A stretch of DNA of 32,047 bases from Candidatus Woesearchaeota archaeon (GTDB taxonomy: Archaea; Nanobdellota; Nanobdellia; Woesearchaeales; GW2011-AR4): the NCBI GenBank assembly GCA_016185815.1, contig JACPMT010000040.1:1-32047 (forward strand), in the 5' to 3' direction. Positions 1 to 25,594 of this stretch are shown here, in pieces (the first letter of the stretch is position 1; each line of letters opens with the position of its first letter). The notes under the pieces were generated by a model. The model worked only from the letters and a program-made list of their open reading frames with translations. It was not told where the DNA came from and ran no database searches. A program made the position numbers and the translations under genes.

Positions 1-1726
1 ATAACATTGCCGCCTTTCTCAACATACTCTTCAATGTCCTCAAATGTTCCAGGCACAATTCCATCCCTTTTATTCACATTATTTATTTTGTAAACTATGA
101 TTACATCATGCTTATAGGGCTCTATCCTTTGTTTTTTTGTGTTTATTGTAACAATCTTCCCTGTTTTGTGGTTGAAGTCCTTTATATCCTCTGTCCCAAT
201 CATGAAATTTATTAATGAGCTCCAGAAAATCGGATAGCCCGGCAGCGTCTTGAAGTCGCTTGTATCATCAAGAATCCCGTAGTAGGCAATCTTACCCTTT
301 TTCCTTTCGCCGTAAACTATCAGCGGAGTTTTGTCGTCAGCTGACGCAAATGTCACAGTTCCCTTTTTTGCATCAGCCCCAAAGTAAGAGGCTGTTGTCG
401 TGAAGCACCTCTCCTTCTCAAACTGCTTTGTTATCTGGTTTATCGTGTCAACGCAGACCTTGGTTGGCTTGCTTATCTTGTTCTTTAATTCAACTCCAAG
501 CAACTCTCTTGTATTGATTTCCTTTGAGTCGTCCTGCACAGCTATTATGGCATTGCCCCCTTTTTCAACATAATCCTCGATATCCTCAAATGTCCCCGGC
601 ACAATGCCGTCCCTTTTGTTCACATTGTTTATCCTGTAAACTATTATTATGTCATGCTTGTAAGGATCTATCTTCTGCTTTTCCCTGTTTATGGTAAGGA
701 CAGGAGGATTGACAACATCCAGCTCAATGTCCTTTGCTGCTTCAAGCGCCAGCTCAAGATTGCTTGATTTTTCATTTGTTATCAGCAAAACAGAATTCTT
801 TATTTTTGGGGGCGTTGCAATAAAGGCAGCGTCGTCAACTTCCAGATCGTCTTTAGGCTCAAGCTCCACTTTTGAAATTCCCGCAGGCGTGTCAAAAACA
901 AAGTTTTCAACGGAATTGGCGGCGATAGCCACTTTTGTTTGCGTTATCTCCTTGTTGTCCTTTACAATCTTTATTGTTATCTGTTTTGCCTCGCTGTTGA
1001 AGTTTTTTATATAGACTTTTGTGTTGTATTTTGCCACCTCAAGCTTTATAATGCCGACATTTTTTGCATTGTTTGAAACATCAATAAAGTCAACCAGCTT
1101 GTCTTCCGAAGACAATGTTGCTCTTACAACCTCTATGTCAGGCCCCTCTGTGGCAAGAAAATCGCTTATTACAACAATTCTGCCGGGCTTGTCCCTCAGG
1201 ATGTCCTTGGCAAGAAGCAAAGCGTCCCCAAGATTTGTTGTTGTCGCCCTTGGCTTTATTTTTGAAAGCACATCAAAAGCTATTTTGGAGTTTTCGTTTT
1301 CCAGCACGATTAGCGGCACGTTTTCAGCCATGATTATGCTGTTCCTCCCGCTTAATGCCTTTTTTGCCTGCTCCAAAGCCTTGTCAAACCTTGAAACTCC
1401 CTTTTCCTTCGCCTGCATCGAGGCGCTCACATCCAGAATAATCACAGTGTTTTCCAATGTCACGTCATATTTTAATTTTACAAACGGCGCGGCTGCAACA
1501 ACGGAAAGGCCCAAAATTGACAATAACTGCAGTAAAAACAGCAAATTTGTCATTAATTTCTGGAAGAATGAGTACTGCCTTGACCTTTTCTTGTCTTGCA
1601 GGACAAACATCAATGAAGGGATTATTTTTTCCTGGGGCTTTGGCCTTCTTAGGTAGAGAACGACAAAAACAGCGACTGCTATCAGCGCCCACAATCCCAG
1701 AGGCCTTTGAAACGGCAAAGTCACCA
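1..1726 (-). CDS. VWA-domain (BatA-like) membrane protein; C-terminal part runs off the window start
   Basis: Minus-strand frame is open from ATG at 1726 (MVTLPFQRPLGLWALIAVAVFVVLYL.., BatA-type N-terminal TM) to position 1. It contains a MIDAS-like DxSxS motif (ILDVSASM). It is absent from the ORF track because no stop lies in the window. The + strand ORFs at 691-1780 are its antisense shadows. Confidence 0.6.
5..673 (-). repeat. Intragenic tandem domain duplication with a 546-nt period
   Basis: Segments ~5-127 and ~551-673 align base for base at roughly 80% identity. Both encode ..PYKHD(V/I)IIVY(K/R)INNVNKRDGIVPGTFEDIE(E/D)YVEKGGN. Confidence 0.6.
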
Positions 1727-1805
1727 TTTTATTTTGATATTTATGAATTGTTGTTTTTATTAACTATACATTTGCTTTAATGGGCTTATGTTTCTTATTC
1801 TGCTC

Positions 1806-1913
1806 TTATTCAATTTCGTTCAAATCCAATTCAATCACGTCATTATTTTTCAAGATATGCTCCACTTCTTCCCTTGTCTTCCCCATCAGCCTGGCCAAAT
1901 CGTCTATTTTCAT
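1806..1913 (-). CDS. 35-aa ORF (MKIDDLARLMGKTREEVEHILKNNDVIELDLNEIE), possible small HTH protein
   Basis: ATG at 1913 lies 5 nt after the stop of the upstream AbrB-like gene; stop at 1806-1808. Too short for a confident call. Confidence 0.2.
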   Translation of the reverse strand: MKIDDLARLMGKTREEVEHILKNNDVIELDLNEIE

Positions 1914-1917
1914 TGCC

Positions 1918-2121
1918 TCACCTTTTTTTCTTCTTGTTAAGTACAAGATTGATTATTTCCTTCGGATTAACAATGTCCTTGACAAGCACGAGAATATCGT
2001 TGAACTCGTACCAGTAAACCTCGGACTTTGAGCCTATCTTCAAGTCCTGCCTTGCCTCCTGCGGCAGGGTCAATTGCCCCTGCTTCGTCAATTTCACCTT
2101 GCCTATGAATTTCGCTTCCAT
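1918..2121 (-). CDS. AbrB/SpoVT (MazE-like) family DNA-binding protein
   Basis: From the internal ATG at 2121 the product reads MEAKFIGKVKLTKQGQLTLPQEARQDLKIG.., which matches the swapped-hairpin SpoVT/AbrB signature. The upstream 31 codons of the tracked ORF are AT-rich promoter sequence. Confidence 0.55.
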   Translation of the reverse strand: MEAKFIGKVKLTKQGQLTLPQEARQDLKIGSKSEVYWYEFNDILVLVKDIVNPKEIINLVLNKKKKR

Positions 2122-2436: not shown

Positions 2437-4362
2437 ATGCCAAAAATCAAGATAACATTGCCGGATGGGAGCGTAAAGGAATACCATAAAGGGATTACTG
2501 CAGGCGAAATTGCCTTTGGCATAGGCAAAAGGCTTGGGGAAGACGCATTAATTGCAAAAATAAACGGCAAGCTAAAAGATTTATTTGTTCCGATAAATGA
2601 AGATTCAACCCTGCAGATTATAACTTACAAAGACAAAGAAGGATTGGAGGCTTTCAGGCACAGCACAGCGCATTTGCTTGCCCATGCAGTTGTTGAGATG
2701 TTTCCAGATGCAAAGCCCACAATAGGGCCTGTTGTTGAAGAGGGCTTCTATTATGATTTTGGCATTGAGCACCATTTCGTTCCTGAAGACTTGGTCAAGA
2801 TAGAGCAGAGAATGCATGAAATTGTCAAAAAGGAATACAAAGTTGAGAGAATTGAGTTAAGCGAGGGCGAAGCAAAAAAACTTTTCAAAAATAACCCGTT
2901 TAAAATAGAGTTAATCCAGGAATTCCATGAGGAAAAACAGCCAATTAGCGCCTATAAACAAGGCGATTTTATCGACTTGTGCAGGGGCCCCCACATCCCA
3001 CACACCGGAAAAATAAAAGCGTTCAAGCTGACGAAAATCGCATCAGCTTACTGGAGAGGCGACCCAAAAAATCAGCAACTGCAGAGAATTTATGGGGTAA
3101 GCTTTTCTGAAAAAAGCATGCTTGATGCTCACTTAAAGCAGGTTGAAGAAGCAGAGAAAAGAGACCACAGGAAAATAGGCAAGGAGCTTGAATGGTTTAA
3201 TTTCTTTGAGGAAAGCCCTGGCTCGCCGTTTTTTTATCCAAAAGGGACAATAATCTACAACCTGCTGCTGGAATTCATCAGGAATGAATACAAAAAAAGA
3301 GGCTATCAGGAAGTTATAACTCCACTTCTTTATGAAAAATCCTTGTGGGTTACCTCAGGCCATTGGGAGCATTTCAAGGAAAGCATGTTTGTTTTGGAAT
3401 CAGAAGGAAAAGAGTTTGCCCTAAAGCCGATGAACTGCCCTTCGCATGTTTTGGTTTACAAGTCAAAATCAAGAAGCTACAAGGACTTGCCTTTGAGGAT
3501 TGCTGATTTTGCTCCTTTGCACAGGAATGAATTGTCTGGAGTTTTGGCTGGCTTGACAAGGGTAAGAAAAATGTCTCAGGATGATGCACACATTTTCATT
3601 GCCCCTGAGCAGATTGAAGAGGAGATTTTCAGAGTGCTTGATTTTACAAATTTCATTTACAGGGAAGTGTTTGATTTTGACTACAAGGTTGAATTAAGCA
3701 CGAAGCCGGAAAAGTTTATGGGCAATGCTGAAGGCTGGAGCAAGGCAGAGGAAGCACTGAAAAAAGCGCTTGAAAAAAAGAAAATTGCGTATGAAATCAA
3801 ATCCGGGGAAGGGGCTTTTTACGGGCCTAAAATTGACTTTCACATTAAAGACGCTTTGGGAAGGGACTGGCAGCTTGCCACCATACAGCTTGACTTCCAA
3901 TTGCCTGAAAGATTTGAAGCAACTTATGTCGGAGCGGACAATGCAAAGCACCCTGTTGTGATGATTCACCGGGCATTGTTCGGCTCAATTGAACGGTTCA
4001 TTGGAATTTTGGTTGAGCACTATGCAGGCAAGCTTCCATTGTGGCTGGCGCCTGTTCAGGTTAGAATCTTGACAGTTGCTGACAGGTTTGAAAAATATGC
4101 AAACAAAATAAATGAAGAGCTTGAAAAGCATAACGTTAGGGTTGAAGCAGACTCAAGAGCTGAAAGCGTTGGGTATAAAGTTAGGGAAGCGCAGCACCAG
4201 AAAATTCCATTGATTTTGACAGTAGGCGAAAAAGAAGAAAGCAAGGGCACGGTTGCAGTAAGGACGATTGATAATAAGGTTTATTTTGACGTTAAGGTTG
4301 ATGATTTATTAAGCAAAATTTTAAAAAATATTAAAGAGAAAAAGGTTAAGGTCGAGTTCTAA
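2437..4362 (+). CDS. thrS: Threonyl-tRNA synthetase
   Basis: TGS domain (MPKIKITLPDGSVKEY), editing-domain HxxxH (HSTAHLLAHAV), class II motifs (FRNE-like LHRNELSG, GAFYGPKIDF) and an anticodon-binding C-terminus. Start moved to ATG 2437; the TTG-initiated extension from 2347 is low complexity. Confidence 0.95.
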   Translation: MPKIKITLPDGSVKEYHKGITAGEIAFGIGKRLGEDALIAKINGKLKDLFVPINEDSTLQIITYKDKEGLEAFRHSTAHLLAHAVVEMFPDAKPTIGPVVEEGFYYDFGIEHHFVPEDLVKIEQRMHEIVKKEYKVERIELSEGEAKKLFKNNPFKIELIQEFHEEKQPISAYKQGDFIDLCRGPHIPHTGKIKAFKLTKIASAYWRGDPKNQQLQRIYGVSFSEKSMLDAHLKQVEEAEKRDHRKIGKELEWFNFFEESPGSPFFYPKGTIIYNLLLEFIRNEYKKRGYQEVITPLLYEKSLWVTSGHWEHFKESMFVLESEGKEFALKPMNCPSHVLVYKSKSRSYKDLPLRIADFAPLHRNELSGVLAGLTRVRKMSQDDAHIFIAPEQIEEEIFRVLDFTNFIYREVFDFDYKVELSTKPEKFMGNAEGWSKAEEALKKALEKKKIAYEIKSGEGAFYGPKIDFHIKDALGRDWQLATIQLDFQLPERFEATYVGADNAKHPVVMIHRALFGSIERFIGILVEHYAGKLPLWLAPVQVRILTVADRFEKYANKINEELEKHNVRVEADSRAESVGYKVREAQHQKIPLILTVGEKEESKGTVAVRTIDNKVYFDVKVDDLLSKILKNIKEKKVKVEF

Positions 4363-5277: not shown

Positions 5278-5407
5278 TAATTTTATAGTAAGCAGCTTGT
5301 ATATAAATATTCTTTTATAGCTTCAAATTGGCTTGAAGTTATAGCTCCTTTCAAAAATGTAAATATAAATAAATATCTTTATAAACTATTTTTAATAGCC
5401 CTAGAAT

Positions 5408-6811
5408 ATGGTCCTCGAAAACCTCAGCAATGCATTGAAAAACACATTGCAAAAAATAGCAAAATCCCTTTTTGTAGATGAAAAGCTGATTAATGAATTA
5501 ATAAAGGACATCCAAAGGGCTTTATTGCAGGCAGATGTAAATGTAAAATTGGTTTTTGACCTGACGGAAAAAATAAAGCAAAGGGCATTGAATGAGGAAT
5601 CCCCAAAAGGGCTTACAAAAAAGGAGCAGATAATAAATATAGTGTATGAGGAATTGGTTAATTTTCTCGGCAAGGAGCAGCACAAAATAGAGCTAAATCA
5701 AAAGCCATTTAAGATAATGCTTGTCGGCTTGTTCGGCTCCGGAAAAACAACCACGGCAGGAAAGCTTGCAAAATTTTACACGAAAAGAGGCCACAAGGTT
5801 GCATTGGTCGGCTTGGATATTCATCGTCCTGCTGCAATGGAGCAGATTGAGCAGGTTGGAAGGCACGCAAACGTTACTGTGTTTTTAGACAAAACCCACG
5901 AAAATCAAAGATTTTCGGGGCCCAGAAAATTCGGTGAATTGTCTCGGGAAATAAAAGACCCGATAGAAATATGGAAAAAACACATTGACGACTATAAAAA
6001 TTTTGACATTTTGATAATAGACACTGCCGGAAGAGACGCGCTTTCCCACGATTTAATCAATGAAATTGAAGAAGTAAACGAAAAAATCCAGCCGAATGAA
6101 AATTTATTGATTATCTCTGCGGACATAGGGCAAGCTGCCCAAAAGCAGGCGGAGCAGTTCCACAAAAGCTGCGGCATAACTGGCATAGTTGTTTCAAAAA
6201 TGGACGGCACTGCAAAGGGCGGAGGGGCTTTGACAGCCTGCGCAGTTTCAGGCGCGCCAATCAAATTTATCGGAATCGGGGAAAAAATAGACGATTTGGA
6301 GCAGTTTAACCCTCAAGGCTTTGTCGGAAGAATTTTAGGCATGGGTGACTTGGAAGCATTGCTGGAAAAAGCAAAGGAAGTGATAAAAACAGAGGATGCA
6401 GAAGACCTTGGCAAGAGGTTTCTTAAAGGAGAATTCAATTTGATTGACTTGTACGAGCAGATGGAAGCAATGTCAAAAATGGGGCCTTTAAGCAGCATTG
6501 TTGAAATGATACCTGGGTTTTCTTCCTTAAAATTGCCCAAGGAAATGCTACAGGTCCAGGAGGGCAAGCTAAAGAAATGGAAAATTGCAATGAACTCCAT
6601 GACAAAGTCAGAGCTTGAAGAGCCCGACATAATCGACAGCCCGAGGGTTGAAAGAATTGCAAAAGGCTCTGGGATTCAAACAAGCGAGATTAGAGAATTG
6701 CTAAAACAATACAAGCAAAGCAAGAAAATGGTCAAGATGTTCAAGGGCAGCAAGGGAGACATTTCAAAAATGATGAAGAAGTTTGGCGGAAAACTGCCGA
6801 TGGGCGTATAG
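5408..6811 (+). CDS. srp54: Signal recognition particle protein SRP54
   Basis: N domain, then G domain with GLFGSGKTTTAGKLA, DTAGR and SKMDGTAKGG, then a Met-rich M domain. Ends at TAG 6809-6811. Confidence 0.95.
   Translation: MVLENLSNALKNTLQKIAKSLFVDEKLINELIKDIQRALLQADVNVKLVFDLTEKIKQRALNEESPKGLTKKEQIINIVYEELVNFLGKEQHKIELNQKPFKIMLVGLFGSGKTTTAGKLAKFYTKRGHKVALVGLDIHRPAAMEQIEQVGRHANVTVFLDKTHENQRFSGPRKFGELSREIKDPIEIWKKHIDDYKNFDILIIDTAGRDALSHDLINEIEEVNEKIQPNENLLIISADIGQAAQKQAEQFHKSCGITGIVVSKMDGTAKGGGALTACAVSGAPIKFIGIGEKIDDLEQFNPQGFVGRILGMGDLEALLEKAKEVIKTEDAEDLGKRFLKGEFNLIDLYEQMEAMSKMGPLSSIVEMIPGFSSLKLPKEMLQVQEGKLKKWKIAMNSMTKSELEEPDIIDSPRVERIAKGSGIQTSEIRELLKQYKQSKKMVKMFKGSKGDISKMMKKFGGKLPMGV
5893..5946 (+). 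other. 54-nt in-frame palindromic insert in srp54; candidate BHB intron
   Basis: Two tandem imperfect hairpins (5895-5920 and 5921-5948). AGAC 5887-5890 pairs with GUCU 5941-5944, with 3-nt bulges AAA and CGG. See findings. Confidence 0.3.
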
Positions 6812-8514: not shown

Positions 8515-10923
8515 ATGAAACTAATCGCGGACCTGCAGATTCATTCACGCTTTTCAAGAGCTACAAGCTCAAGCTTGAATCTCCCAAATCTTGAAAAATA
8601 TGCGAAGCTAAAGGGGCTTAATCTTCTCGGAACAGGCGACTTTACCCATCCAAAATGGCTTGCTGAATTAAAAAATGAATTAAAAGAAGATGGCTCCGGG
8701 ATTTTGGCATCAAAATCCGGATTTCATTTTGTCTTGCAGGGGGAAATATCCAACATTTACACACAGGATGGAAAAGGAAGAAGAATTCATAACTTATTAC
8801 TTGCAAGAAATTTTGAGGTTGTTGAGCAGATAAATTCCGCATTGCTGAAAAAAGGCAGGCTTGATTATGACGGCAGGCCCATTTTCGGCTTTTCATGCAT
8901 TGAGTTAGTGGAAATGATGAAGGAAATTGACGATGAAATTGAAATCATTCCGGCGCATTGTCTACTACCTGGAACCATTATTCATTCTAATCCTAAACTT
9001 ATGCCTATAGAACACTTAAAAAATGGTGATAAAGTTCTTACTCATAAAAGTAAATATAGAAAAGTAAAGGCTATTCATAATAGGCACTACAAGGGTGATA
9101 TTTACCATATAAAACCTAGGTATTTTAGTTTAGGCTTAAACACAACTGAAGAACATCCTTTTTTTGCTATAAAAACTTTAAAAGATTGTTCGTGGACAAG
9201 CGGAATATGTAAGCCTACATATCCCCATATCAAACGTTGTGTTACAAATGCATATCAAAAATATGAACCAAGATGGATTCAAGCTAAAAATCTAGAAGTA
9301 GGTGATGTTTTACTTTACCCAAGACTAACATCTACTAAAGATGTAAAATATGTAAAGATTGGTAATGATAATGTTAGAGTTGATGAAAAATTCTGTAGAT
9401 TAATTGGTTACTACTTGGCTGAAGGATACACCAATGGACGCGACTGCATAGGATTTAGCTTTAATAAGGAAGAGACTCAATTTTTAAATGACGTCAGATA
9501 TTTAATTTCAGAGGTATTAAAATATAAATCAAAAGAAGGAAAAACCTTTGGCGATATATTAGTATACTCGAATAGGATACGTTTATTCTTTGAGGAAAAC
9601 TTTTATTGTGATAATCAAAAGAGAGCAAGTTCAAAATCCATGCCTTATTGGATGTTGAAGCTACCACTGAAAAAACAAGTTGAAATCTTAAAGGGTTGGT
9701 GGTATGGTGACAGGGGTAGCACATCTTCAAGAACATTAATGAACCAATTTAAGATTATCTGTTTAAGGCTTGGAGTTGTACCATCTATAAGAGTGGATAC
9801 TAAAGATTCACATATATTACGTGGAAAACATATACTTAAAAATAGAATAATAACAGCACAAAGTGATAATTATATTTTAGATAGACTAACTTTCTTTGAG
9901 GATAAATTCAATTTATTAAAAAATGAATATTTTAGAATATGCAAGCCTAAAAAAGAAATGAAATATGGTTGGATTGATAACAAGTATGTATATCTTCCAA
10001 TATTTAAAATAATCAAAAAGCATTATGAAGGTTATGTTTATAATCTCGAAGTGGAAGAGGACAACTCCTATGTTGCAGAATTTGCTGCTATCCATAATTG
10101 CTGGACGCCTTGGTACGGAATTTTCGGCAGCATGTCAGGATTTGACAGTGTTGAGGAATGCTTTAAGGAAAAGTCAAAGCATATTTACGCAATTGAAACC
10201 GGCTTAAGCTCCGACCCTGCAATGAACTGGCGCCTTTCAAAGCTCGACAAATATACTTTGCTGAGCAGCTCTGACGCCCATTCATTCTGGCCATGGCGCC
10301 TGGGAAGGGAAGCAAATGTTTTTGACATGGATTGGAGCTACGATGATTTACTGCAAGCAATAAGGAAGAGAAAAGGATTTGTCGAGACAATTGAGATGTG
10401 GCCTCATGAAGGAAAATACCATTACACAGGGCACAGGAACTGCAATGTCTGTTTAAGCCCGAAAGAATCCATTGAATTAAAAAATATATGCCCAAAGTGC
10501 AGAACCCCCCTTACTGTTGGGGTTGCCCAAAGGGTTGAAATGCTTGCAGACAGGGAAGAGGGATTTGTCCCTGAAAATGCAGTTCCATTCAAGAATTTAA
10601 TACCTTTGTCCGAGGTTATTGCAGGCACAACAGGGCATGCAGTAAGCTCAAAGCAAGTTTGGGAAGAATATTACAAATTAATCAATGAATTTGGAAATGA
10701 ATTTAACATTTTGTTGGAAGCAGAAGAAACAAACTTGAAAAAAATAACTTCTGAGAAGATTGCAAATAACATTATAAAAAACAGAAACCAGAAAATTCCA
10801 TTCAAGCCGGGATATGACGGGGTTTATGGGGTGCCGATTTTTAATGATAAATACGCGATAAAAATTAAAGAACAAAATAATGAATTAAAAATCAAACAAA
10901 AAGGGCTGGACGAGTTTATGTAA
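8515..10923 (+). CDS. PHP-domain endonuclease-Q-like protein (TIGR00375-type) interrupted by an intein
   Basis: N-terminal PHP motif DLQIHSRFSRATS..GTGDFTHP. Extein junction IIPAH|CWTPW. C-terminal Cys cluster CNVC..CPKC. The extein is 422 aa after removing 380 aa. Confidence 0.7.
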   Translation: MKLIADLQIHSRFSRATSSSLNLPNLEKYAKLKGLNLLGTGDFTHPKWLAELKNELKEDGSGILASKSGFHFVLQGEISNIYTQDGKGRRIHNLLLARNFEVVEQINSALLKKGRLDYDGRPIFGFSCIELVEMMKEIDDEIEIIPAHCLLPGTIIHSNPKLMPIEHLKNGDKVLTHKSKYRKVKAIHNRHYKGDIYHIKPRYFSLGLNTTEEHPFFAIKTLKDCSWTSGICKPTYPHIKRCVTNAYQKYEPRWIQAKNLEVGDVLLYPRLTSTKDVKYVKIGNDNVRVDEKFCRLIGYYLAEGYTNGRDCIGFSFNKEETQFLNDVRYLISEVLKYKSKEGKTFGDILVYSNRIRLFFEENFYCDNQKRASSKSMPYWMLKLPLKKQVEILKGWWYGDRGSTSSRTLMNQFKIICLRLGVVPSIRVDTKDSHILRGKHILKNRIITAQSDNYILDRLTFFEDKFNLLKNEYFRICKPKKEMKYGWIDNKYVYLPIFKIIKKHYEGYVYNLEVEEDNSYVAEFAAIHNCWTPWYGIFGSMSGFDSVEECFKEKSKHIYAIETGLSSDPAMNWRLSKLDKYTLLSSSDAHSFWPWRLGREANVFDMDWSYDDLLQAIRKRKGFVETIEMWPHEGKYHYTGHRNCNVCLSPKESIELKNICPKCRTPLTVGVAQRVEMLADREEGFVPENAVPFKNLIPLSEVIAGTTGHAVSSKQVWEEYYKLINEFGNEFNILLEAEETNLKKITSEKIANNIIKNRNQKIPFKPGYDGVYGVPIFNDKYAIKIKEQNNELKIKQKGLDEFM
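8959..10098 (+). mobile_element. Intein (380 aa) with a LAGLIDADG homing-endonuclease domain
   Basis: Block A is CLLPGT (Cys1 at 8959) and block B is NTTEEHPFF. There are two LAGLIDADG motifs (LIGYYLAEGYTNG and ILKGWWYGDRGS). Blocks F/G are VYNLEVEEDNSYVAEFAAIHN, followed by the +1 Cys (10099). Confidence 0.85.
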
Positions 10924-10963
10924 TATATCCCCGCGGCCGGATTTGAACCAGCGACCTCCCGGG

Positions 10964-11040
10964 AACGACTGATTCTAGTTCATCCCTAGCTTATTGCTTA
11001 TGGTCTTAGAACGCATCTATGGCCAAACTTCTATTAAGTT
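10964..11040 (-). other. tRNA intron 2 (~77 nt) at or near the canonical 37/38 position
   Basis: Boundaries are inferred from the requirement for a 7-nt anticodon loop and the CUCGG/CCGGG stem. I could draw only a relaxed BHB (CUGU vs GUCG), so the exact ends are uncertain. Confidence 0.45.
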
Positions 11041-11059
11041 TCACAGCCGAGCGCTCCAT

Positions 11060-11093
11060 TCCCTAGCGAGCCAATTTTTTAAAATTGGCAGCT
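11060..11093 (-). other. tRNA intron 1 (34 nt) in the D-loop with a complete hBHBh' motif
   Basis: Central helix CCUG (11099-11096) pairs with UAGG (11065-11062). Both 3-nt bulges read GA|A. Inner helix is GC:GC plus the 9-bp hairpin GCCAAUUUU/AAAAUUGGC. The outer helix is the D-stem. Confidence 0.6.
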
Positions 11094-11165
11094 TCCAGGT
11101 TGAGCTACGCGGGGAATATAAGACTAAATTAAATCTTGATTTATAAATATTGTGCAAAATAAATA

Positions 11166-19366: not shown

Positions 19367-19838
19367 TTCTTCTACTTTAATTGCTTTGGAAAGAGCTGGT
19401 TTAATTAAATTCATCGACAAAATTGGATATAATGTAATCATACCCAAAGCTGTCAAAGAAGAAATCAAGAATGAAAAAATTCTAAAGTTTTTAAAAATGC
19501 ATGAGCTAACGGGAAGAACTTTAAGGCTTAGCAAAAGTCTAGAACACTTGAATATTGGCAGTGGAGAGGCACAATGCTGCGCTTTGGCAAATAAACTGAA
19601 ATTAGATTTTATAATATGTGATGATAGAAAATTTATAAGGCAAAGATTTTTATCAGATAATAAACACTTGAAAAATATTAAGGTTCTGGGATTCTCATTT
19701 TTTCTTCATATTTTCTACAAAAAAAAATTAATAAAAAATACATGGGAATATTTTGATAAGATTATCAAATCGAATAATTGGGAAAGAAGCGAGGTATTGG
19801 TTGCTAATTATACTTTTCTCAAAAAGATTGGATACTAA
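19344..19838 (+). CDS. PIN-like (DUF3368/COG2405-type) nucleic-acid-binding protein; toxin candidate
   Basis: ILVVDSSTLIALERAGLI..IIPKAVKEE...GSGEAQCCALA..LDFIICDDRKF matches the PIN_3/DUF3368 pattern as I recall it. TTG start. Confidence 0.55.
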   Translation: MPKILVVDSSTLIALERAGLIKFIDKIGYNVIIPKAVKEEIKNEKILKFLKMHELTGRTLRLSKSLEHLNIGSGEAQCCALANKLKLDFIICDDRKFIRQRFLSDNKHLKNIKVLGFSFFLHIFYKKKLIKNTWEYFDKIIKSNNWERSEVLVANYTFLKKIGY

Positions 19839-21424
19839 TACTCCTCCCAACCCTTAATCTCCAAATCCTCCATCTTTTTCTTATAAATTGACTCAATAAA
19901 CAGCTTGGCAATCTGCTCATTTGTTAGCAATGGAATATTGAAATCAACTGCTTTTCTTCTGATTAAATAATCATTTGTTAGCTCTTCCTCTTCCAAGCTT
20001 TTTGGTATGTTAATCACTAAATCAATATTCCTTTCCTGAATGTAAGTCAACACATTTGGCTCTCTCTTGTCAAGGGGCCACCATAAAATTTCAGCATTTA
20101 CCCCATTCTGCTCCAAGAATTTTGCAGTGCCTTCTGTTGCATACAAATTAAATCCAATTTCTTCCAATTTTCTAACGCTTTCAAGCAAATAAGCTTTGCT
20201 TTTTATCGGTCCTGTTGAGAGCAAAACATTAGAATTTGGCATTACAAACCCAACTGAAAGCAATGATTTAAGAAAAGCTTCATTTATGTCATTACCCAAG
20301 CAAGCAACTTCCCCAGTTGATGCCATCTCAACGCTTAAAACAGGGTCAGCGCCGTGCAGCCTTGAGAATGAAAATTGCGGAGCCTTGACTCCAACATAAT
20401 CCAAGTCAAGGGTGTTGTACTTTCCTCTTATGTCAAGCCCAAGCATAGCCTTTGTCGCCATTTCAATGAAATTATATTTTGTGACTTTTGAGACAAAAGG
20501 AAAACTCCTTGAAGCCCTTAAATTGCACTCTATAACTTTTATTTGGTTGTCTTTTGCAATAAACTGAATGTTAAACGGACCTGTTATTTTCAACGCCTTT
20601 GCAATGTTTTTTGTTGTTTCCTTTATCTTCCTAATTGTTTCAAGATAAGTGTATTGGGGCGGCAATGCCATTGTCGCGTCGCCAGAATGCACTCCTGCAT
20701 TTTCTATGTGCTCCGATATTGCATAAATTACAACATCCCCATTTTGGGCAACTGCATCAATCTCAATTTCCTTTGCATTTGTTATGAACTTGCTTATGAC
20801 AACCGGGTGCTCTTTTGAGACATCCGCCGCTTTCTTGAGATATTGCTCAAGTTCTTTATTGCTGGAAGCGATGCTCATCGCAGCCCCGCTCAAAACATAA
20901 GAAGGACGTATCAAGATAGGGTATTCAACCTTTTCTGCAAACTTATGCGCCTCTTCAATAGATTTTGCTTCAGTCCATTCCGGCTGGTCCACATTTAAAG
21001 AGTCAAGCAGCGCAGAAAATTTATGGCGGTTCTCTGCATTGTCTATGCTTAAAGGGTTTGTCCCTAATATTTTTATATTCTGCCTGTGTAACTTCATTGC
21101 AAGGTTATTCGGAATCTGGCCGCCCATTGAAATTATAGTGCCAAGAGGATTCTCTTTTTCATAGATGTCAAGAACTCTCTCAAAGCTTAATTCATCGAAG
21201 TAAAGCCTGTCGCAGACATCATAGTCTGTGCTTACAGTTTCAGGATTATAATTAATCATAATTGTAGAATAACCAAGCTTATTTAAAGTAAAAACAGCAT
21301 TGACACAGCACCAGTCAAATTCAACAGAAGAGCCTATTCGGTAAGCGCCTGAGCCAAGAACAATTGCATTATTTTTGTTATCAAATTTTACATCATCCTC
21401 TTCCCCATTATAAGTTAAGTAAAG
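19835..21424 (-). CDS. carB: Carbamoyl-phosphate synthase large subunit, C-terminal half (second ATP-grasp + MGS-like domain); start unresolved
   Basis: The frame is open from 21424 and reads LYLTYNGEEDDVKFDNKNNAIVLGSGAYRIGSSVEFDWCCV..MINYNPETVSTDYD..IECNLRASRSFPFVSK.. The first canonical start is ATG 21259, which is downstream of the Gly-rich loop. Confidence 0.8.
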   Translation of the reverse strand, partial: LYLTYNGEEDDVKFDNKNNAIVLGSGAYRIGSSVEFDWCCVNAVFTLNKLGYSTIMINYNPETVSTDYDVCDRLYFDELSFERVLDIYEKENPLGTIISMGGQIPNNLAMKLHRQNIKILGTNPLSIDNAENRHKFSALLDSLNVDQPEWTEAKSIEEAHKFAEKVEYPILIRPSYVLSGAAMSIASSNKELEQYLKKAADVSKEHPVVISKFITNAKEIEIDAVAQNGDVVIYAISEHIENAGVHSGDATMALPPQYTYLETIRKIKETTKNIAKALKITGPFNIQFIAKDNQIKVIECNLRASRSFPFVSKVTKYNFIEMATKAMLGLDIRGKYNTLDLDYVGVKAPQFSFSRLHGADPVLSVEMASTGEVACLGNDINEAFLKSLLSVGFVMPNSNVLLSTGPIKSKAYLLESVRKLEEIGFNLYATEGTAKFLEQNGVNAEILWWPLDKREPNVLTYIQERNIDLVINIPKSLEEEELTNDYLIRRKAVDFNIPLLTNEQIAKLFIESIYKKKMEDLEIKGWEEY

Positions 21425-22689
21425 TTAATTAATTCAATTGGAATATTGTCAATATTAAATTTTAATAGCTCTTTCTCTGTCTCGACAACATTTTTTATTT
21501 TATATAGGAACCATTTATCGATTTTTGTCAGCTCATATATTTTATCAATGGGAATTTCCTTTTTGATTGCTTCAACAATAACAAGCAGTCTTTTGTCAGT
21601 TGGCTTTGTCAATTCTTTTTCAATAGTGTCAAATTTTAAATTATTTCCAACTAAGCCATGAAGGTTTATGTTGAGCATCCTTATTGCCTTTTGAACCACT
21701 TCCTCAAACTTTCTTCCTATAGCCATAACCTCGCCGACACTCTTCATCTCGCTGCCGATTTCAAAGCTCACTCTCTTGAATTTCTGCAAGTCCCATCTTG
21801 GCATTTTAACAACAATATAATCCAATGCAGGCTCAAAGCAGCTTTTTGTTGCCTTTGTTATCATGTTTTCAAGCTCTATTAAGGAATAGCCCAAAGCAAG
21901 CTTTGCTGCAATAAATGCTAAAGGATAACCAGTTGCCTTTGATGCAAGCGCAGAGCTTCTTGAAAGCCTTGCATTTACTTCAATAAGCCTGTAATCCTCG
22001 GAATTTGGGTCGAGGGCAAACTGTATATTGCATTCCCCGACAATTCCAAGGTGCCTTATGACTTTAATTGAAATGTCCCTTAACTTGTGGTATTCATTGT
22101 TTGTCAAAGTTTGAGATGGAGCAACGACAATGCTTTCTCCAGTATGAATTCCCATAGGGTCAAAGTTTTCCATGTTGCAGACTGTGATGCAGTTGTCATA
22201 AGCATCTCTTACAACTTCGTATTCAACTTCTTTCCAGCCGCCGAGGTATTTCTCAACAAGAACTTGGGAGGAATAGGCTAATGCCCTTTTTGCATTGTTT
22301 CTTAATTCTTCTTCATTTAAGGCAACGCCAGAGCCTTGTCCGCCTAAGGCATAAGCTACTCTAAGCATAACAGGATATTTTAATTTTTTAGCAACTTCTA
22401 CTGCTTGCTCCACCGTGTTAACAGCTTCGCTTTCAGGCACTTTGAGGCTTATTTTAGTTAATTTGTTTACAAACAATTCCCTGTCCTCTGTGTTCTTGAT
22501 TGCGTCAATCTGGGTGCCTAAAACTTTTATATTGTATTTTTCAAAAACATTATTATTGGATAATGCAACTCCGCAGTTTAAAGCCGTTTGCCCGCCAAAA
22601 GAAAGCATGATTCCGTCTGGATTTTCCTTTTCAATAACTTTTTCTACAAAGTAAGGGGTTACAGGAAGAAAATAAATCTTATCAGCCAT
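21415..22689 (-). CDS. carB: Carbamoyl-phosphate synthase large subunit, N-terminal ATP-grasp section (424 aa)
   Basis: MADKIYFLPVTP..GGQTALN..MLRVAYALGGQGSG..VEYEVVRD..IEVNARLSRSSALASKATGYPLA.. Ends inside the oligomerisation domain. Confidence 0.9.
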   Translation of the reverse strand: MADKIYFLPVTPYFVEKVIEKENPDGIMLSFGGQTALNCGVALSNNNVFEKYNIKVLGTQIDAIKNTEDRELFVNKLTKISLKVPESEAVNTVEQAVEVAKKLKYPVMLRVAYALGGQGSGVALNEEELRNNAKRALAYSSQVLVEKYLGGWKEVEYEVVRDAYDNCITVCNMENFDPMGIHTGESIVVAPSQTLTNNEYHKLRDISIKVIRHLGIVGECNIQFALDPNSEDYRLIEVNARLSRSSALASKATGYPLAFIAAKLALGYSLIELENMITKATKSCFEPALDYIVVKMPRWDLQKFKRVSFEIGSEMKSVGEVMAIGRKFEEVVQKAIRMLNINLHGLVGNNLKFDTIEKELTKPTDKRLLVIVEAIKKEIPIDKIYELTKIDKWFLYKIKNVVETEKELLKFNIDNIPIELINFT

Positions 22690-22695
22690 GCCCTA

Positions 22696-22874
22696 ACTTG
22701 TCTGGATTGTTGCAATGTTTGGATTTACGAGTACTGTTTCTATGCCTTCTTCGCGGAGGGCTTTGAGGCATTGGGAGCCGGAGTAGTCGAATTAGCGCCT
22801 TATAAGGTCTCGCCTGCTTCTCCGATTTTCAATGAACCCGAGCCCAGAACTAACACTTTTTTAGGCTTGTTCAA
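22696..22874 (-). CDS. carB: carB 5' segment (two exons split by a 17-nt element), terminated by an in-frame TAG
   Basis: SD GGAGGTGA (22883-22890), 8-nt spacer, then TTG 22874. Exon 1 reads [22 protein letters not shown] (to 22809). Exon 2 reads [32 protein letters not shown] (22791-22696). TAG follows at 22693-22695. Confidence 0.6.
22792..22808 (-). other. Candidate 17-nt BHB mini-intron in carB mRNA (ACCUUAUAAGGCGCUAA)
   Basis: A non-triplet insert lies exactly between E and F of the conserved EFDYSG motif. A 4-bp helix GGCG/CGCU is flanked by 3-nt bulges AGA and AAU and an inner palindrome CCUUAUAAGG. See findings. Confidence 0.55.
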
Positions 22875-24078
22875 TAGTGATTTCACCTCCGTTTAATTTC
22901 CATAAATATGATCTGTTAGAAGCGACTTTTCCTACTATGGCTACTAAACCCTTATTACTAAGGTGTTTAAGTTTCTTAAGAGCTTTAGTTTTAGATTTTC
23001 CTAAATCAGCAGCTATGTCAGCAGTGGAAGCACATCCTTTTTTTGATAAAAATTCTAAAATTTTGTTATTTAAAATTCTTTCATTTCCTTTGCTATAAAA
23101 TATTTTGCTATTAACTATCTTCTTTAATTTCTCAAATTTTTCCCCACTAGTTAACCCAATTTTATTATAAAAATTAATTAAACTCTGATAATCAGTGATA
23201 TTTATGTACATTACAATATGCAAACCATCTTCTTTTTTGTATTGTCTAGAAATTTTAGGTTTTCCAGAATATATATCCAATTCCTTAAGAATAAAACTTA
23301 TTTGTTCTAATAAGTTGTAAAGAGTTTCTTTTTGGTTTATATGCCTTATTACGTTCATATTTAAACCTTTTGCTCTATAATTATTGCTTAACATGACAGA
23401 ACCATCATCATCAAAAAAAGCTTTTAAGAAAGCAATTCTATATTTTTTAGATTTTAGTATCCATTCTGGAACTAAATTTTCACTATAAATCTTTGGCGCG
23501 ATAGGTGCTCCAAATACTTCCAAAATTTCTCCTGTAATTGCTGGATAGCCTATCCTATTTTGCTTTTCTGTATATGGTAAAATGCCAAATAATTCAGAAA
23601 TTTGAGTTTTAACTTCCTTTATCAAATTAGGATTATTATTGCTGTATTCAAACTGCCTTTTATTTCTACCTATATAACCATCACCAAAAACATGACCAAT
23701 TAACGAAGCGATTTTTTCGTCATGTCTAATGGGAAACTTAATATTCATACTTGTACCCGCACGAGTTCTAATTGACGTGATATTATTTTGTATTTCTTCA
23801 AGAGAAATCTTTGACAAGTTTGATAATTTTAATATAATATCTAATGGAATTGAATACATATTCTTCCTTAAATGAATCACAAAAGGGTATGAAATATCGA
23901 ATAATTTTGCTAATTCTTTTAATTCGATATTACAATTATCAAAAAGCTTTATAGTGAAGTCTTTATTAAGATTTAATCTAACATTGTCGGATAAATTCCA
24001 AAAATTTATTTGAAATTCTTTAATATTCTGTATCATTTTATAGCTAAAATCTTTATTTGATTTTTGTTTATTATTCAT
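22861..24078 (-). CDS. Free-standing double-motif LAGLIDADG protein with N-terminal HTH-like and C-terminal winged-helix domains
   Basis: LAGLIDADG motifs LIGHVFGDGYIG and FLKAFFDDDGSV. C-terminus LEFLSKKGCASTADIAADLGKSKTKALKKLKHLSNKGLV is wHTH-like. Start moved to ATG 24078 (MNNKQKS..); the longer tracked ORF overlaps the upstream gene. No Hint or intein splicing blocks. Confidence 0.7.
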   Translation of the reverse strand: MNNKQKSNKDFSYKMIQNIKEFQINFWNLSDNVRLNLNKDFTIKLFDNCNIELKELAKLFDISYPFVIHLRKNMYSIPLDIILKLSNLSKISLEEIQNNITSIRTRAGTSMNIKFPIRHDEKIASLIGHVFGDGYIGRNKRQFEYSNNNPNLIKEVKTQISELFGILPYTEKQNRIGYPAITGEILEVFGAPIAPKIYSENLVPEWILKSKKYRIAFLKAFFDDDGSVMLSNNYRAKGLNMNVIRHINQKETLYNLLEQISFILKELDIYSGKPKISRQYKKEDGLHIVMYINITDYQSLINFYNKIGLTSGEKFEKLKKIVNSKIFYSKGNERILNNKILEFLSKKGCASTADIAADLGKSKTKALKKLKHLSNKGLVAIVGKVASNRSYLWKLNGGEITIEQA

Positions 24079-24203: not shown

Positions 24204-24521
24204 TTACCTGAGCCATTTTTTCTTAATTTTTCCTATTATTAATCCTATTAAAATTCCTAATAGAGTATAAAATATTGGGGACAAATAAACAGCAATGACC
24301 ACTATACCTTCTGGTGCTAAAGGATCGTTAGGTAAAGCATTTAAAATCCATAATATAGTTGCAAAAGATAAATAAGGCAACGCTATAAGAATAATTAGAA
24401 AAGGCGAATCGTAAAAAGGAGAGAAAGAAAAATAAAAAACTATTAAACCGAATATTAGTCCAATTACTCCACCTTTCTGCCAATATTTCAATTTACCCCA
24501 AAATTGTTTTGTTTTCCTCAT
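24204..24521 (-). CDS. Small membrane protein (105 aa, about 3 TM)
   Basis: ATGA start/stop overlap with carA (24518-24521) suggests translational coupling. Hydrophobic helices throughout. Confidence 0.5.
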   Translation of the reverse strand: MRKTKQFWGKLKYWQKGGVIGLIFGLIVFYFSFSPFYDSPFLIILIALPYLSFATILWILNALPNDPLAPEGIVVIAVYLSPIFYTLLGILIGLIIGKIKKKWLR

Positions 24522-25594
24522 TTCAACATCCTCACAAACTCATCAAACAAAAAATTAGTATCATTCGGACCAGGCCAGGACTCCGGATGGAATTGCGCCG
24601 ACATAAACGGTTTTGTCTTGTGTTTTATTCCTTCATTTGTTCCATCATTCGCATTGACAAAAAATTCCTCCCAGTTTTCATCCAATGATTTCATATCAAC
24701 TGCATAGCCATGGTTTTGTGTTGTAATAAAGCATCTTTTTGTTCCATTTAAAATACAAGGCTGGTTTTGCGAGCGATGCCCGTACTTCAGCTTGTAAGTG
24801 TCGCCGCCTGCTGCAAGGGCAAGGATTTGATTTCCGAGGCATATCCCGAAAATTGGAATGTTGTGCTTCATTGCCCTGCCTATGTTGTAAATTGTTTTAT
24901 CGCACATCTTTGGGTCGCCGGGACCATTGGAAATGAGCAATCCATCAAAGAAATCCGTGAAAAAATCATAATCATACGGAACTCTTATCACTGTAAGGTT
25001 TCTTTCAATTAAATTCCTTATGATGTTATTTTTGACCCCGCAATCGACAACAACAATTTTTTTTTGATTTGGTCTTTCGTTATAGACTATTGGTTCCCTG
25101 ATAGAAACATCTTTCACTATGTCAATACTGCTGGGGTTATAGAAAGGAACATCATCGTCATTGATTATTATTTTTCCGAGCATTGCGCCTTTTTCCCTTA
25201 AAGTCTTTGTCAGCTTTCTTGTGTCAATGCCATAAATTGCCGGAATGCTTTCTTCCTTTAACCATTCTGCAAGGCTTTTCTTTGCATTCCAATGGGAATA
25301 TTCAAAAGAGTAGTCAGAAATAACTAATGCTTGGACTTGGATTTTGTCGGATTCAAAGTTTTTTAATAAATTGTTTTCAACATCTTTCCCCGGGACACCA
25401 TAGTTTCCAATGAGAGGATATGTCAAAACAAGAATTTGGCCTTTATAGCTTGGGTCTGTAAGCGACTCCGGATAGCCAACCATGCCTGTGTTGAATACAA
25501 CCTCTCCAGAAACAGAATGCTCTGCGCCAAAAGAAAAGCCTTTGAACTCATCGCCATTTTCAAGAATAAGCTTGGCTTCTTTAACGTCACCCAT
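24518..25594 (-). CDS. carA: Carbamoyl-phosphate synthase small (glutaminase) subunit
   Basis: CPSase_sm_chain N-domain (GEVVFNTGMVGYPESLTDPSYKGQILVLTYPLIGNYG). GATase triad region (PIFGICLGNQILALAAGG..HGYAV..QFHPE). Confidence 0.95.
   Translation of the reverse strand: MGDVKEAKLILENGDEFKGFSFGAEHSVSGEVVFNTGMVGYPESLTDPSYKGQILVLTYPLIGNYGVPGKDVENNLLKNFESDKIQVQALVISDYSFEYSHWNAKKSLAEWLKEESIPAIYGIDTRKLTKTLREKGAMLGKIIINDDDVPFYNPSSIDIVKDVSIREPIVYNERPNQKKIVVVDCGVKNNIIRNLIERNLTVIRVPYDYDFFTDFFDGLLISNGPGDPKMCDKTIYNIGRAMKHNIPIFGICLGNQILALAAGGDTYKLKYGHRSQNQPCILNGTKRCFITTQNHGYAVDMKSLDENWEEFFVNANDGTNEGIKHKTKPFMSAQFHPESWPGPNDTNFLFDEFVRMLK

Follow-up and report, generated by a model that had tools for sequence, protein, structure and literature searches.

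A probable bulge-helix-bulge mini-intron in the carB gene of a Woesearchaeota archaeon and its possible mobilisation by an adjacent LAGLIDADG endonuclease

Short introns with bulge-helix-bulge (BHB) boundaries were reportedly described in the crenarchaeal gene cbf5 (pseudouridine synthase) by Watanabe in 2002 and by Yoshinari in 2006. We report here on a 17-nt insert in the carB gene on the minus strand of a metagenome-type contig of a Candidatus Woesearchaeota archaeon (32,047 nt; hereafter the window, whose positions provide all coordinates unless another locus is named). As judged from its comparison with related loci, this insert is probably a relaxed BHB intron of the carB pre-mRNA and part of a composite element with a neighbouring LAGLIDADG homing-endonuclease gene, the carB copy of the window having been recently inactivated further downstream. 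The cbf5 pre-mRNA introns of Crenarchaeota measure 16-44 bp and have no known endonuclease, ORF-bearing ancestors (ORF, open reading frame) having only been speculated for them (Yokobori 2009, PMC2738675). Similarly to the cbf5 introns, the carB insert is short and ORF-less, lies in a protein gene, has BHB-type boundaries with presumed cleavage by the tRNA-splicing endonuclease EndA, and shows a patchy pattern of gain and loss. Unlike them, it occurs in a metabolic gene, in DPANN archaea instead of Crenarchaeota, at two sites located within 23 nt and in linkage with a free-standing LAGLIDADG gene; furthermore, splicing was shown experimentally for cbf5, whereas we infer it for carB. The initial annotation of the window held that a BHB intron in carB would be new beyond cbf5. 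This agrees with our literature searches, which returned nothing on BHB introns in carB or in DPANN mRNAs, and in which cbf5 was the only archaeal pre-mRNA BHB intron cited.

Three other described systems share features with the carB locus. First, as in the relaxed archaeal tRNA introns (HBh' and BHL motifs; non-canonical positions), we find a 4-bp helix, 3-nt bulges with a cut placed after the second bulge nucleotide, an inner helix h', and an exon-side helix that is weak or absent. What differs is the host RNA of the carB insert, an mRNA in which splicing would compete with coupled translation, and in which the coding sequence restricts the exon strand of the helix. In this connection, the EndAs of DPANN archaea that possess an L3 loop go with disrupted tRNA genes, and the lineages with a loop-bearing EndA are rich in relaxed BHB introns (PMC5829648). 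Second, the pairing of a BHB intron with a LAGLIDADG enzyme is a property of archaeal rRNA introns (I-DmoI, I-PorI, I-Tsp061I), and I-Tsp061I is among the best structural matches of the protein encoded by the window. There, the ORF lies inside the intron, whereas here it lies outside, about 66 nt upstream of an intron of 17-39 nt, and the host gene is protein-coding. Third, in the collaborative (or trans) homing of phages, F-CphI acts with the psbA intron of cyanophage S-PM2 and MobE with nrd introns (PMC2790892, PMC6083498). The window and about a dozen lineages resemble these phages in having a free-standing endonuclease gene beside a conserved gene interrupted by an intron without an ORF, in the expectation of co-conversion and patchy distribution, and in the proposal that the intron splits the target, thereby protecting its carrier. 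The phage systems involve self-splicing group I introns and nucleases of the HNH or Endo VII type, whereas a BHB intron, a LAGLIDADG enzyme and an archaeal chromosome are involved here. To our knowledge, collaborative homing has so far been described only for self-splicing group I introns of phages. We rejected the possibility that the carB insert is itself a group I intron, since its 17-39 nt are far too few for a ribozyme and its geometry is of the BHB type. The carB system combines features of canonical hBHBh' introns, intron-encoded endonucleases and group I collaborative homing, and is, as far as the sequences tell, identical to none of them.

The Shine-Dalgarno sequence, TTG start, first exon, 17-nt insert, in-frame UAA and continuation in a shifted frame from position 22791 that the initial annotation had described are all present in the window (Table 1). 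A GGAGGT motif followed by a TTG start (GTG in L094) occurs at the equivalent place in L001, L004, L088, L089, L091, L093, L094, L099 and L100 (L numbers designate the loci of relatives). The insert falls precisely between the invariant codons for GE and those for FDYSG, in a stretch, GEAGEFDYSG, that is uninterrupted in the CarB homologues (120 proteins were compared), and Pfam recognises the carB pieces on the contig. The 4-bp helix GGCG/CGCU and the 3-nt bulges AGA and AAU are also found as described, and excision in silico after the second bulge nucleotide on both strands yields GGC GAG/UUC GAC, i.e. GE/FD (the slash marks the junction). A random 17-nt insert would fit this register by chance with p ~0.0013 (about 1 in 800), and shuffles of the real insert do so with p ~0.0004. 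The 10-nt palindrome presented as the inner hairpin does sit between the bulges, but it makes only a marginal hairpin, with a free energy of 0.0 kcal/mol when folded alone. BHB-like motifs are frequent (about 33 per kb per strand), and the minimum-energy fold found by RNAfold is the proposed motif, yet its stability equals that of shuffled sequence (z = 0.00). On account of this chance frequency and of this z value, the insert of the window, taken without its relatives, is an accurate observation but only suggestive evidence for an intron, and the weight passes to the comparison with relatives.

Relatives were gathered from the DNA behind database homologues having the N-termini expected from an interrupted 5' end, and from scans of GTDB genomes and JGI metagenomes. 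Exactly at the GE/FD junction, 13 distinct inserts of 17-39 nt were found in DPANN carB genes whose reading frame is otherwise uninterrupted over some 1,000 codons (Table 1). None of the 13 can be translated through, their lengths being non-triplet or, where they are multiples of three, in-frame stops being present. The 17-nt insert of L091/L092 (two assemblies), which is identical to that of the window, stands within an intact carB. The comparison of related carB alleles with and without the insert, which had been proposed as a check, thus shows that inserts recur in intact genes. The closest homologues of both CarB and the endonuclease come from metagenome-assembled genomes of Woesearchaeota, Nanoarchaeota and Diapherotrites, and the host lineage is archaeal (DPANN).

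A second intron site was found 23 nt upstream of GE/FD, inside the Leu codon of GSGA-L-KIG, where L007, L094 and L116 carry inserts of 29-34 nt. These obey the same cut rule (GCA C/UC AAA), which restores GSGA/LK in the three loci, and their hairpin sequences differ. The remaining 87 carB copies have normal spacing at this site, and the window is likewise devoid of the second intron.

The exons on both sides of the insert are coding. In exon 1, the codon differences across intron-bearing lineages are 509 synonymous versus 146 non-synonymous in the carB frame, as compared with 39/601 and 35/605 (synonymous/non-synonymous) in the other two frames, a pattern indicating that exon 1 is under purifying selection as a coding sequence in the carB frame. 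Since the two exons are both coding, in different frames and with stops between them, they would have to be joined.

The shape of the RNA was studied in an alignment of the 13 variants in which the register was kept (an earlier version comprised 10 variants); controls were made by sliding the pairing partners by 1-3 columns and by 500 shuffles. One geometry and one cut rule accommodate 13/13 variants, with GE/FD being restored in silico in all of them. When the central helix is taken together with the four basal pairs of the inner hairpin, 97.1% of the cells are paired, versus 35-52% in the slid controls. Two-sided changes are seen in five of these eight pairs, the four of the inner stem among them. 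The observed pairing percentage or covariation score was matched by 0/500 shuffles, a figure that overstates independence because the 13 variants share descent. Considered alone, the central helix has 96% of its cells paired, with one compensatory change from C-G to U-A, while the four basal pairs of the inner helix h' are paired in 98% of the cells and all covary. The third base of the Gly codon preceding the junction is position 3 of the central helix, and this codon is GGC in 15/16 intron-bearing alleles; the exception, L069, has GGU and an A as the intron partner. Intron-less alleles use GGC (32), GGA (22), GGT (16) and GGG (11) for the same Gly. It appears from this comparison that the synonymous third base is held by pairing.

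Besides the chance frequency, the neutral stability, the marginal hairpin and the shared descent mentioned above, the following points count against the intron. First, the outermost central pair is unpaired in 2/13 variants (G.A in both L069 and L118). Second, no contiguous pairing is found in the window for an exon-side helix h directly beside the 3' bulge, as a canonical hBHBh' motif would have. The motif had been announced as a textbook one; it is instead, to judge from its pairing, a relaxed HBh'-like BHB. The lack of an adjacent exon-side helix leaves the 3' cut site in a loop-like context, which would require an EndA of relaxed specificity, and the window contains no EndA gene. Third, the outer helix CGGAG/CUCCG, thought to close the structure further out, can form in the RNAfold minimum-energy structure but lacks statistical support: 86% of its cells are paired across the variants, 43/500 shuffles do as well, and only one change is two-sided. 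Fourth, a search of database proteins yielded no intron-less counterpart ("spliced twin") of any intron-bearing lineage.

The initial annotation had also argued for a relaxed-specificity endonuclease from a neighbouring tRNA with a full BHB intron. The tRNA in question is a 187-nt intergenic candidate at 10928-11114 (minus strand), about 11.7 kb away, which standard tools miss and whose introns are not uniquely resolvable; the argument drawn from it is unsupported as it was put. In this multi-intron candidate, the acceptor stem is perfect (7 bp), the T-arm is good, and a D-stem and an anticodon stem with the loop CUGUGA (possibly His) can be recognised; the D-loop region and the part following the anticodon together hold about 110 extra nt. 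Neither ARAGORN with default settings nor Rfam (at the gathering threshold and with E up to 10) reports a tRNA there, and relaxed ARAGORN combined with a brute-force removal of introns by the BHB rule gives many acceptable solutions.

Together, the 13 inserts in otherwise intact genes, the helix covariation, the second site and the coding selection on both exons provide strong comparative evidence for interpreting the insert as a BHB mini-intron, as had been suggested for the window. In the process that we propose, the exon GGCG of the transcript would pair with the intron CGCU, with 3-nt bulges on opposite strands and the small intron hairpin as a cap. EndA would cut at 22809/22808 and at 22792/22791, and a ligase of the RtcB type would join GGC GAG to UUC GAC, thereby giving GEAGE-FDYSG.

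Table 1. Features of the carB locus in the window, and positions of the inserts found in carB of relatives.
Feature	Position	Strand	Basis or remark
carA, small subunit, intact	24518..25594	-	Pfam; upstream edge of locus
Membrane ORF (predicted), 105 aa	24204..24521	-	no family match; between carA and endonuclease gene
LAGLIDADG homing-endonuclease gene, free-standing, 451 aa	22861..24216	-	Pfam LAGLIDADG_3 + HTH_24; two LAGLIDADG motifs, C-terminal winged helix-turn-helix
Shine-Dalgarno GGAGGTGA of carB	22883..22890	-	inside 3' end of endonuclease ORF; 8-nt spacer to start
carB exon 1	22809..22874	-	TTG start (22874-22872) + 21 codons, 22 residues
Predicted 17-nt BHB-type mini-intron ACCUUAUAAGGCGCUAA	22792..22808	-	layout A-CCUUAUAAGG-CGCU-AA; in-frame UAA within
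Central-helix 5' strand GGCG	22811..22814	-	exon bases: Gly codon GGC + G of GAG; pairs with 22797-22794
5' bulge AGA	22808..22810	-	predicted cut between 22809 and 22808
Inner hairpin h' CCUUAUAAGG	22798..22807	-	about 3 bp + 4-nt loop; shortest form in intron family
Central-helix 3' strand CGCU	22794..22797	-	intron bases
3' bulge AAU	22791..22793	-	predicted cut between 22792 and 22791
Span closed by possible outer helix CGGAG (22824-22820)/CUCCG (22783-22779)	22779..22824	-	RNAfold minimum-energy structure
carB exon 2, defective in this contig	19835..22791	-	frame shifted relative to exon 1; CarB homologues, best 85% identity
In-frame TAG replacing nearly universal Glu codon (TSEGMADK in relatives)	22693..22695	-	homologue alignment
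Junction of ~181-nt out-of-frame deletion, between short AATTA repeats	21424..21425	-	homologue alignment
Insert of 17 nt at GE/FD	window; identical copy in L091/L092		
Inserts of 18 nt at GE/FD (two variants)	L007; L116		
Inserts of 19 nt at GE/FD (two variants)	L094; L096		
Inserts of 20 nt at GE/FD (two variants)	L085-87; L088/L100 and L089/L090/L093		
Inserts of 22 nt at GE/FD (two variants)	L001-3; L118		
Insert of 23 nt at GE/FD	L004/L099		
Insert of 32 nt at GE/FD	L069		
Insert of 34 nt at GE/FD	L098/L104		
Insert of 39 nt at GE/FD	L115		
Second-site introns	L007 5979-6007; L094 5362-5395; L116 5370-5398		

The insert had been correctly reported, but the adjacent LAGLIDADG gene had been overlooked. 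The stop of this gene overlaps the carB start, the gene stands neither within the intron nor within an intein, and the stretch 23001-24000, which lies inside it, has 27% GC. The Pfam LAGLIDADG_3 match has E = 2.4e-10. The two motifs read GHVFGDGY and FDDDGSV, and G174, G178, D179, G180, F268 and D270 are invariant in 41 family sequences. Structure prediction was carried out with AlphaFold, an alignment-based run with a predicted local distance difference test score (pLDDT) of 84 replacing a single-sequence run with a pLDDT of 36. When compared by Foldseek, the model matches the endonuclease domains of VMA inteins with E = 1e-8, and I-Tsp061I with a TM score of 0.62 relative to the target; no match to PDB sequences was found at the level of sequence. 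With about 42 clusters, the family is a small one, and it occurs in DPANN only. Every homologue with at least 43% identity is found in the gene order carA, endonuclease, carB, and every such locus with the junction on its contig carries the intron, in about a dozen lineages whose carB identity goes down to 59%. LAGLIDADG matches at 35% identity or less (L102, L105-L114, L117) were left out of this association, as they stand in other contexts, e.g. an rpS12 intein. The close intron-less relatives L005, L006 and L008 are devoid of the endonuclease gene. Shorter versions of the 105-aa membrane ORF were observed at the same place in L089, L093 and L094, which represent the cassette subtype of about 450 aa with a winged helix-turn-helix.

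Three kinds of sequence remnants bear on the extent of the mobile unit. First, between carA and the endonuclease gene, L001 (~2560-2620) and L004 (~3620-3690) retain a leftover of the ancestral carB start. Second, L091 carries at 3736-3815 a leftover carB start together with the final ~40 nt of an endonuclease gene that has otherwise been lost. Third, a protein designated P0040, which is 96% identical to the L001 protein, begins exactly with the L001 leftover, and looks like the product of an unoccupied allele. The left edge of the cassette, as deduced from the leftovers, falls where the second intron site lies. On the basis of the leftovers, of the deletion footprint in L091 and of P0040, we define the presumptive cassette unit as the endonuclease gene, a new carB 5' end (Shine-Dalgarno sequence, TTG start and codons 1-22) and the intron.

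The synonymous sites around the junction support mobility as well. We compared 39 nt around the junction with the next 1,200 nt by counting the codons for the same amino acid and applying Fisher's exact test. Pairs of intron-bearing alleles differ at 8-38% of such codons at the junction versus 39-60% downstream. Conversely, when intron-bearing alleles are compared with their intron-less sisters, the differences amount to 75-92% at the junction versus 34-46% downstream (for instance, 11/13 versus 127/378 for L001 and L005). The p values for junction versus downstream differences are 0.0003-0.006. Co-conversion of a mobile segment could explain these patterns, as could selection for recoded alleles that resist the endonuclease, or the two may have acted together. 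In a neighbour-joining tree of CarB, intron-less lineages are nested in a clade that is mostly intron-bearing, and carriers of both the endonuclease gene and the intron occur at four other positions, beside intron-less neighbours. Together, the synonymous-site patterns and the patchy phylogeny point to a mobile cassette comprising the endonuclease gene and the intron, and the two intron sites, 23 nt apart in the most conserved stretch, would agree with one target of about 20-30 bp.

By analogy with collaborative homing, the LAGLIDADG enzyme would cut intron-less carB in or near the conserved 5' stretch, the intron would interrupt the endonuclease target and so protect its carrier, and the repair of a cut allele would copy the endonuclease gene and the intron together, or the intron alone. 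We hold with moderate confidence that the endonuclease is a partner of the intron. The fuller scenario, in which ORF-less BHB introns are mobilised and selected by an adjacent LAGLIDADG enzyme that cuts intron-less carB in the coding stretch spanning the FDYSG junction, and have spread in this way among DPANN archaea, is put forward as a tentative proposal that may well be revised.

The explanation that best survives beside this proposal accepts the intron but takes the LAGLIDADG protein for something other than its mobility partner, namely a linked selfish gene, a WhiA-like regulator of carAB or a maturase-like helper, associated with the intron by shared descent. We regard it as rather unlikely, though several facts argue for it and thereby against homing. 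The model also resembles the regulator WhiA and the bI3 maturase, albeit more weakly, and the subtype found in the window has a C-terminal winged helix-turn-helix. Introns also occur in loci without the endonuclease gene (L085-87, L007 and L069), and most carriers belong to one clade. Furthermore, the low divergence among intron-bearing junctions could come from the constraint of RNA structure or of EndA recognition alone. Against this explanation stand the acidic residues of both LAGLIDADG motifs, kept across 41 members; the carriers of endonuclease and intron at four isolated positions of the CarB tree beside intron-less neighbours; the recoding of intron-less sisters at the junction well above background; the leftover carB starts and deletion footprint, which amount to insertion and loss of the cassette; and the low GC content of the gene, which fits a foreign origin.

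Far less probable is the explanation that the insert stays in the mRNA and is passed over by the ribosome, either through programmed bypassing of the T4 gene 60 kind or through frameshifting. Two features of the gene 60 type, an early stop codon behind the take-off point and a hairpin close by, do occur here. Nevertheless, take-off and landing codons do not match, with GAG before the insert and UAA, UUA, AUU, CAU or CUA before UUC, and insert lengths (17-39 nt) fall into all three classes modulo 3, so that no single shift works. In addition, the covarying helix joins exon bases to the 3'-terminal part of the insert, in exactly the register of a BHB motif and with a bulge of 3 nt at either junction, and the identical geometry is found at the second intron site.

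We consider still somewhat less probable, indeed improbable, that the 17 nt are a random lesion in a decaying carB pseudogene with a coincidental BHB-like fold. This reading draws on the frequency of chance motifs and on a fold that is not unusually stable, as well as on two further lesions of the gene. In the window, carB is interrupted three times: by the 17-nt insert, by a nonsense codon and by a deletion. The interruption by the insert is real, as had been noted, but the quoted frame ends two codons before the in-frame TAG, which had gone unreported, and the deletion lies further downstream (Table 1). This deletion removes ~61 conserved residues (KSAKQQGFSD...QIDTLAAEYPAKTNY). Three ways of rescuing the gene were considered and rejected. 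First, a recoding of TAG disagrees with its use as the terminator of 6/25 long ORFs of the window, carB itself among them. Second, supply of the missing 61-aa segment from elsewhere or by trans-splicing finds no match within the window. Third, a functional two-piece carB is contradicted by the first in-frame start of the downstream half, at 21259, which comes after the essential Gly-rich loop. The carB copy of the window is, by these features, defective, and its splicing would not give a working CarB. An exact-protein look-up of its 424-aa carB ORF gave no record.

The following lines of evidence nevertheless separate the insert from these lesions. First, the identical 17 nt occur in an intact carB (L091/L092), and the 12 other variants, with covarying helices, stand in intact genes; a plain pseudogene, for which decaying sister copies of carB would have spoken, is at odds with sisters that are open for ~1,000 codons. 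Second, exon 1 is still under coding selection, and the exact register has a chance of ~0.001 per insert. Third, the reconstructed CarB of the window has 0 deviations at 430 nearly invariant columns, a lower count than in each of the 119 homologues, so that no relaxed constraint is apparent. From this absence of drift, the inactivation would be very recent, or would represent a minority or assembly variant, and the other lesions are unrelated to the insert. An assembly or sequencing artefact as the source of the insert itself, though the window is a metagenome-type contig, has a negligible probability, since NCBI, ENA and JGI data from separate samples, processed with differing assemblers, independently contain this insert or related ones.

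Several side observations concern carB and its surroundings. The carB of L085 contains, at ~5390-5500, an extra in-frame segment of ~105 nt (35 aa) in the oligomerisation-domain linker, the same region as the deletion of the window; this linker segment appears to be length-variable among relatives. The CarB lineage of the window is 70-75% identical to the CarB of many bacteria (Bacteroidales, Aminicenantes, Calditrichia, Ignavibacteria; loci L010-L083), and the nearby riboflavin genes ribD, ribA and ribB are of the bacterial type, which suggests an inter-domain transfer of the carB and riboflavin loci. A second mobile element of the LAGLIDADG type was noticed at 8515-10923 (plus strand), where an 802-aa ORF of the TIGR00375 family contains an intein (Hint/Intein_splicing, with an intein C-terminal motif) and LAGLIDADG_3. 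Elsewhere on the contig, at 691-2031 (plus strand), four small and partly overlapping ORFs (107, 211, 107 and 83 aa) have no Pfam or NCBIfam match.

The gene calls of the relatives are also worth describing. In L115, L116 and L118 (GCA_043808785.1, GCA_016928835.1 and GCA_028818155.1), ~3.3 kb past the endonuclease gene are left uncalled, yet encode a full carB interrupted by the mini-intron(s) only. In other intron-bearing loci, gene callers give an N-terminally truncated CarB that starts, for example, with MADKIYF or MREEGI. Because intron-bearing carB is truncated or, in NCBI records, left uncalled, the synthesis of pyrimidine and arginine precursors may be wrongly scored as absent in DPANN archaea, and BHB introns of other genes may have gone unnoticed for the same reason.

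If our interpretation is correct, carB would be the second protein gene after cbf5 to possess archaeal BHB introns, this time in core metabolism and in a different superphylum, and endonuclease-mediated mRNA splicing in Archaea would be more than a one-gene curiosity. The cassette would also offer a testable route, through protection and co-conversion, for the gain and the retention of ORF-less BHB introns, an open question for tRNA and mRNA introns alike. It would provide ORF-less BHB introns with a first mechanism of mobility and would, for the first time, extend collaborative homing beyond the group I introns of phages.

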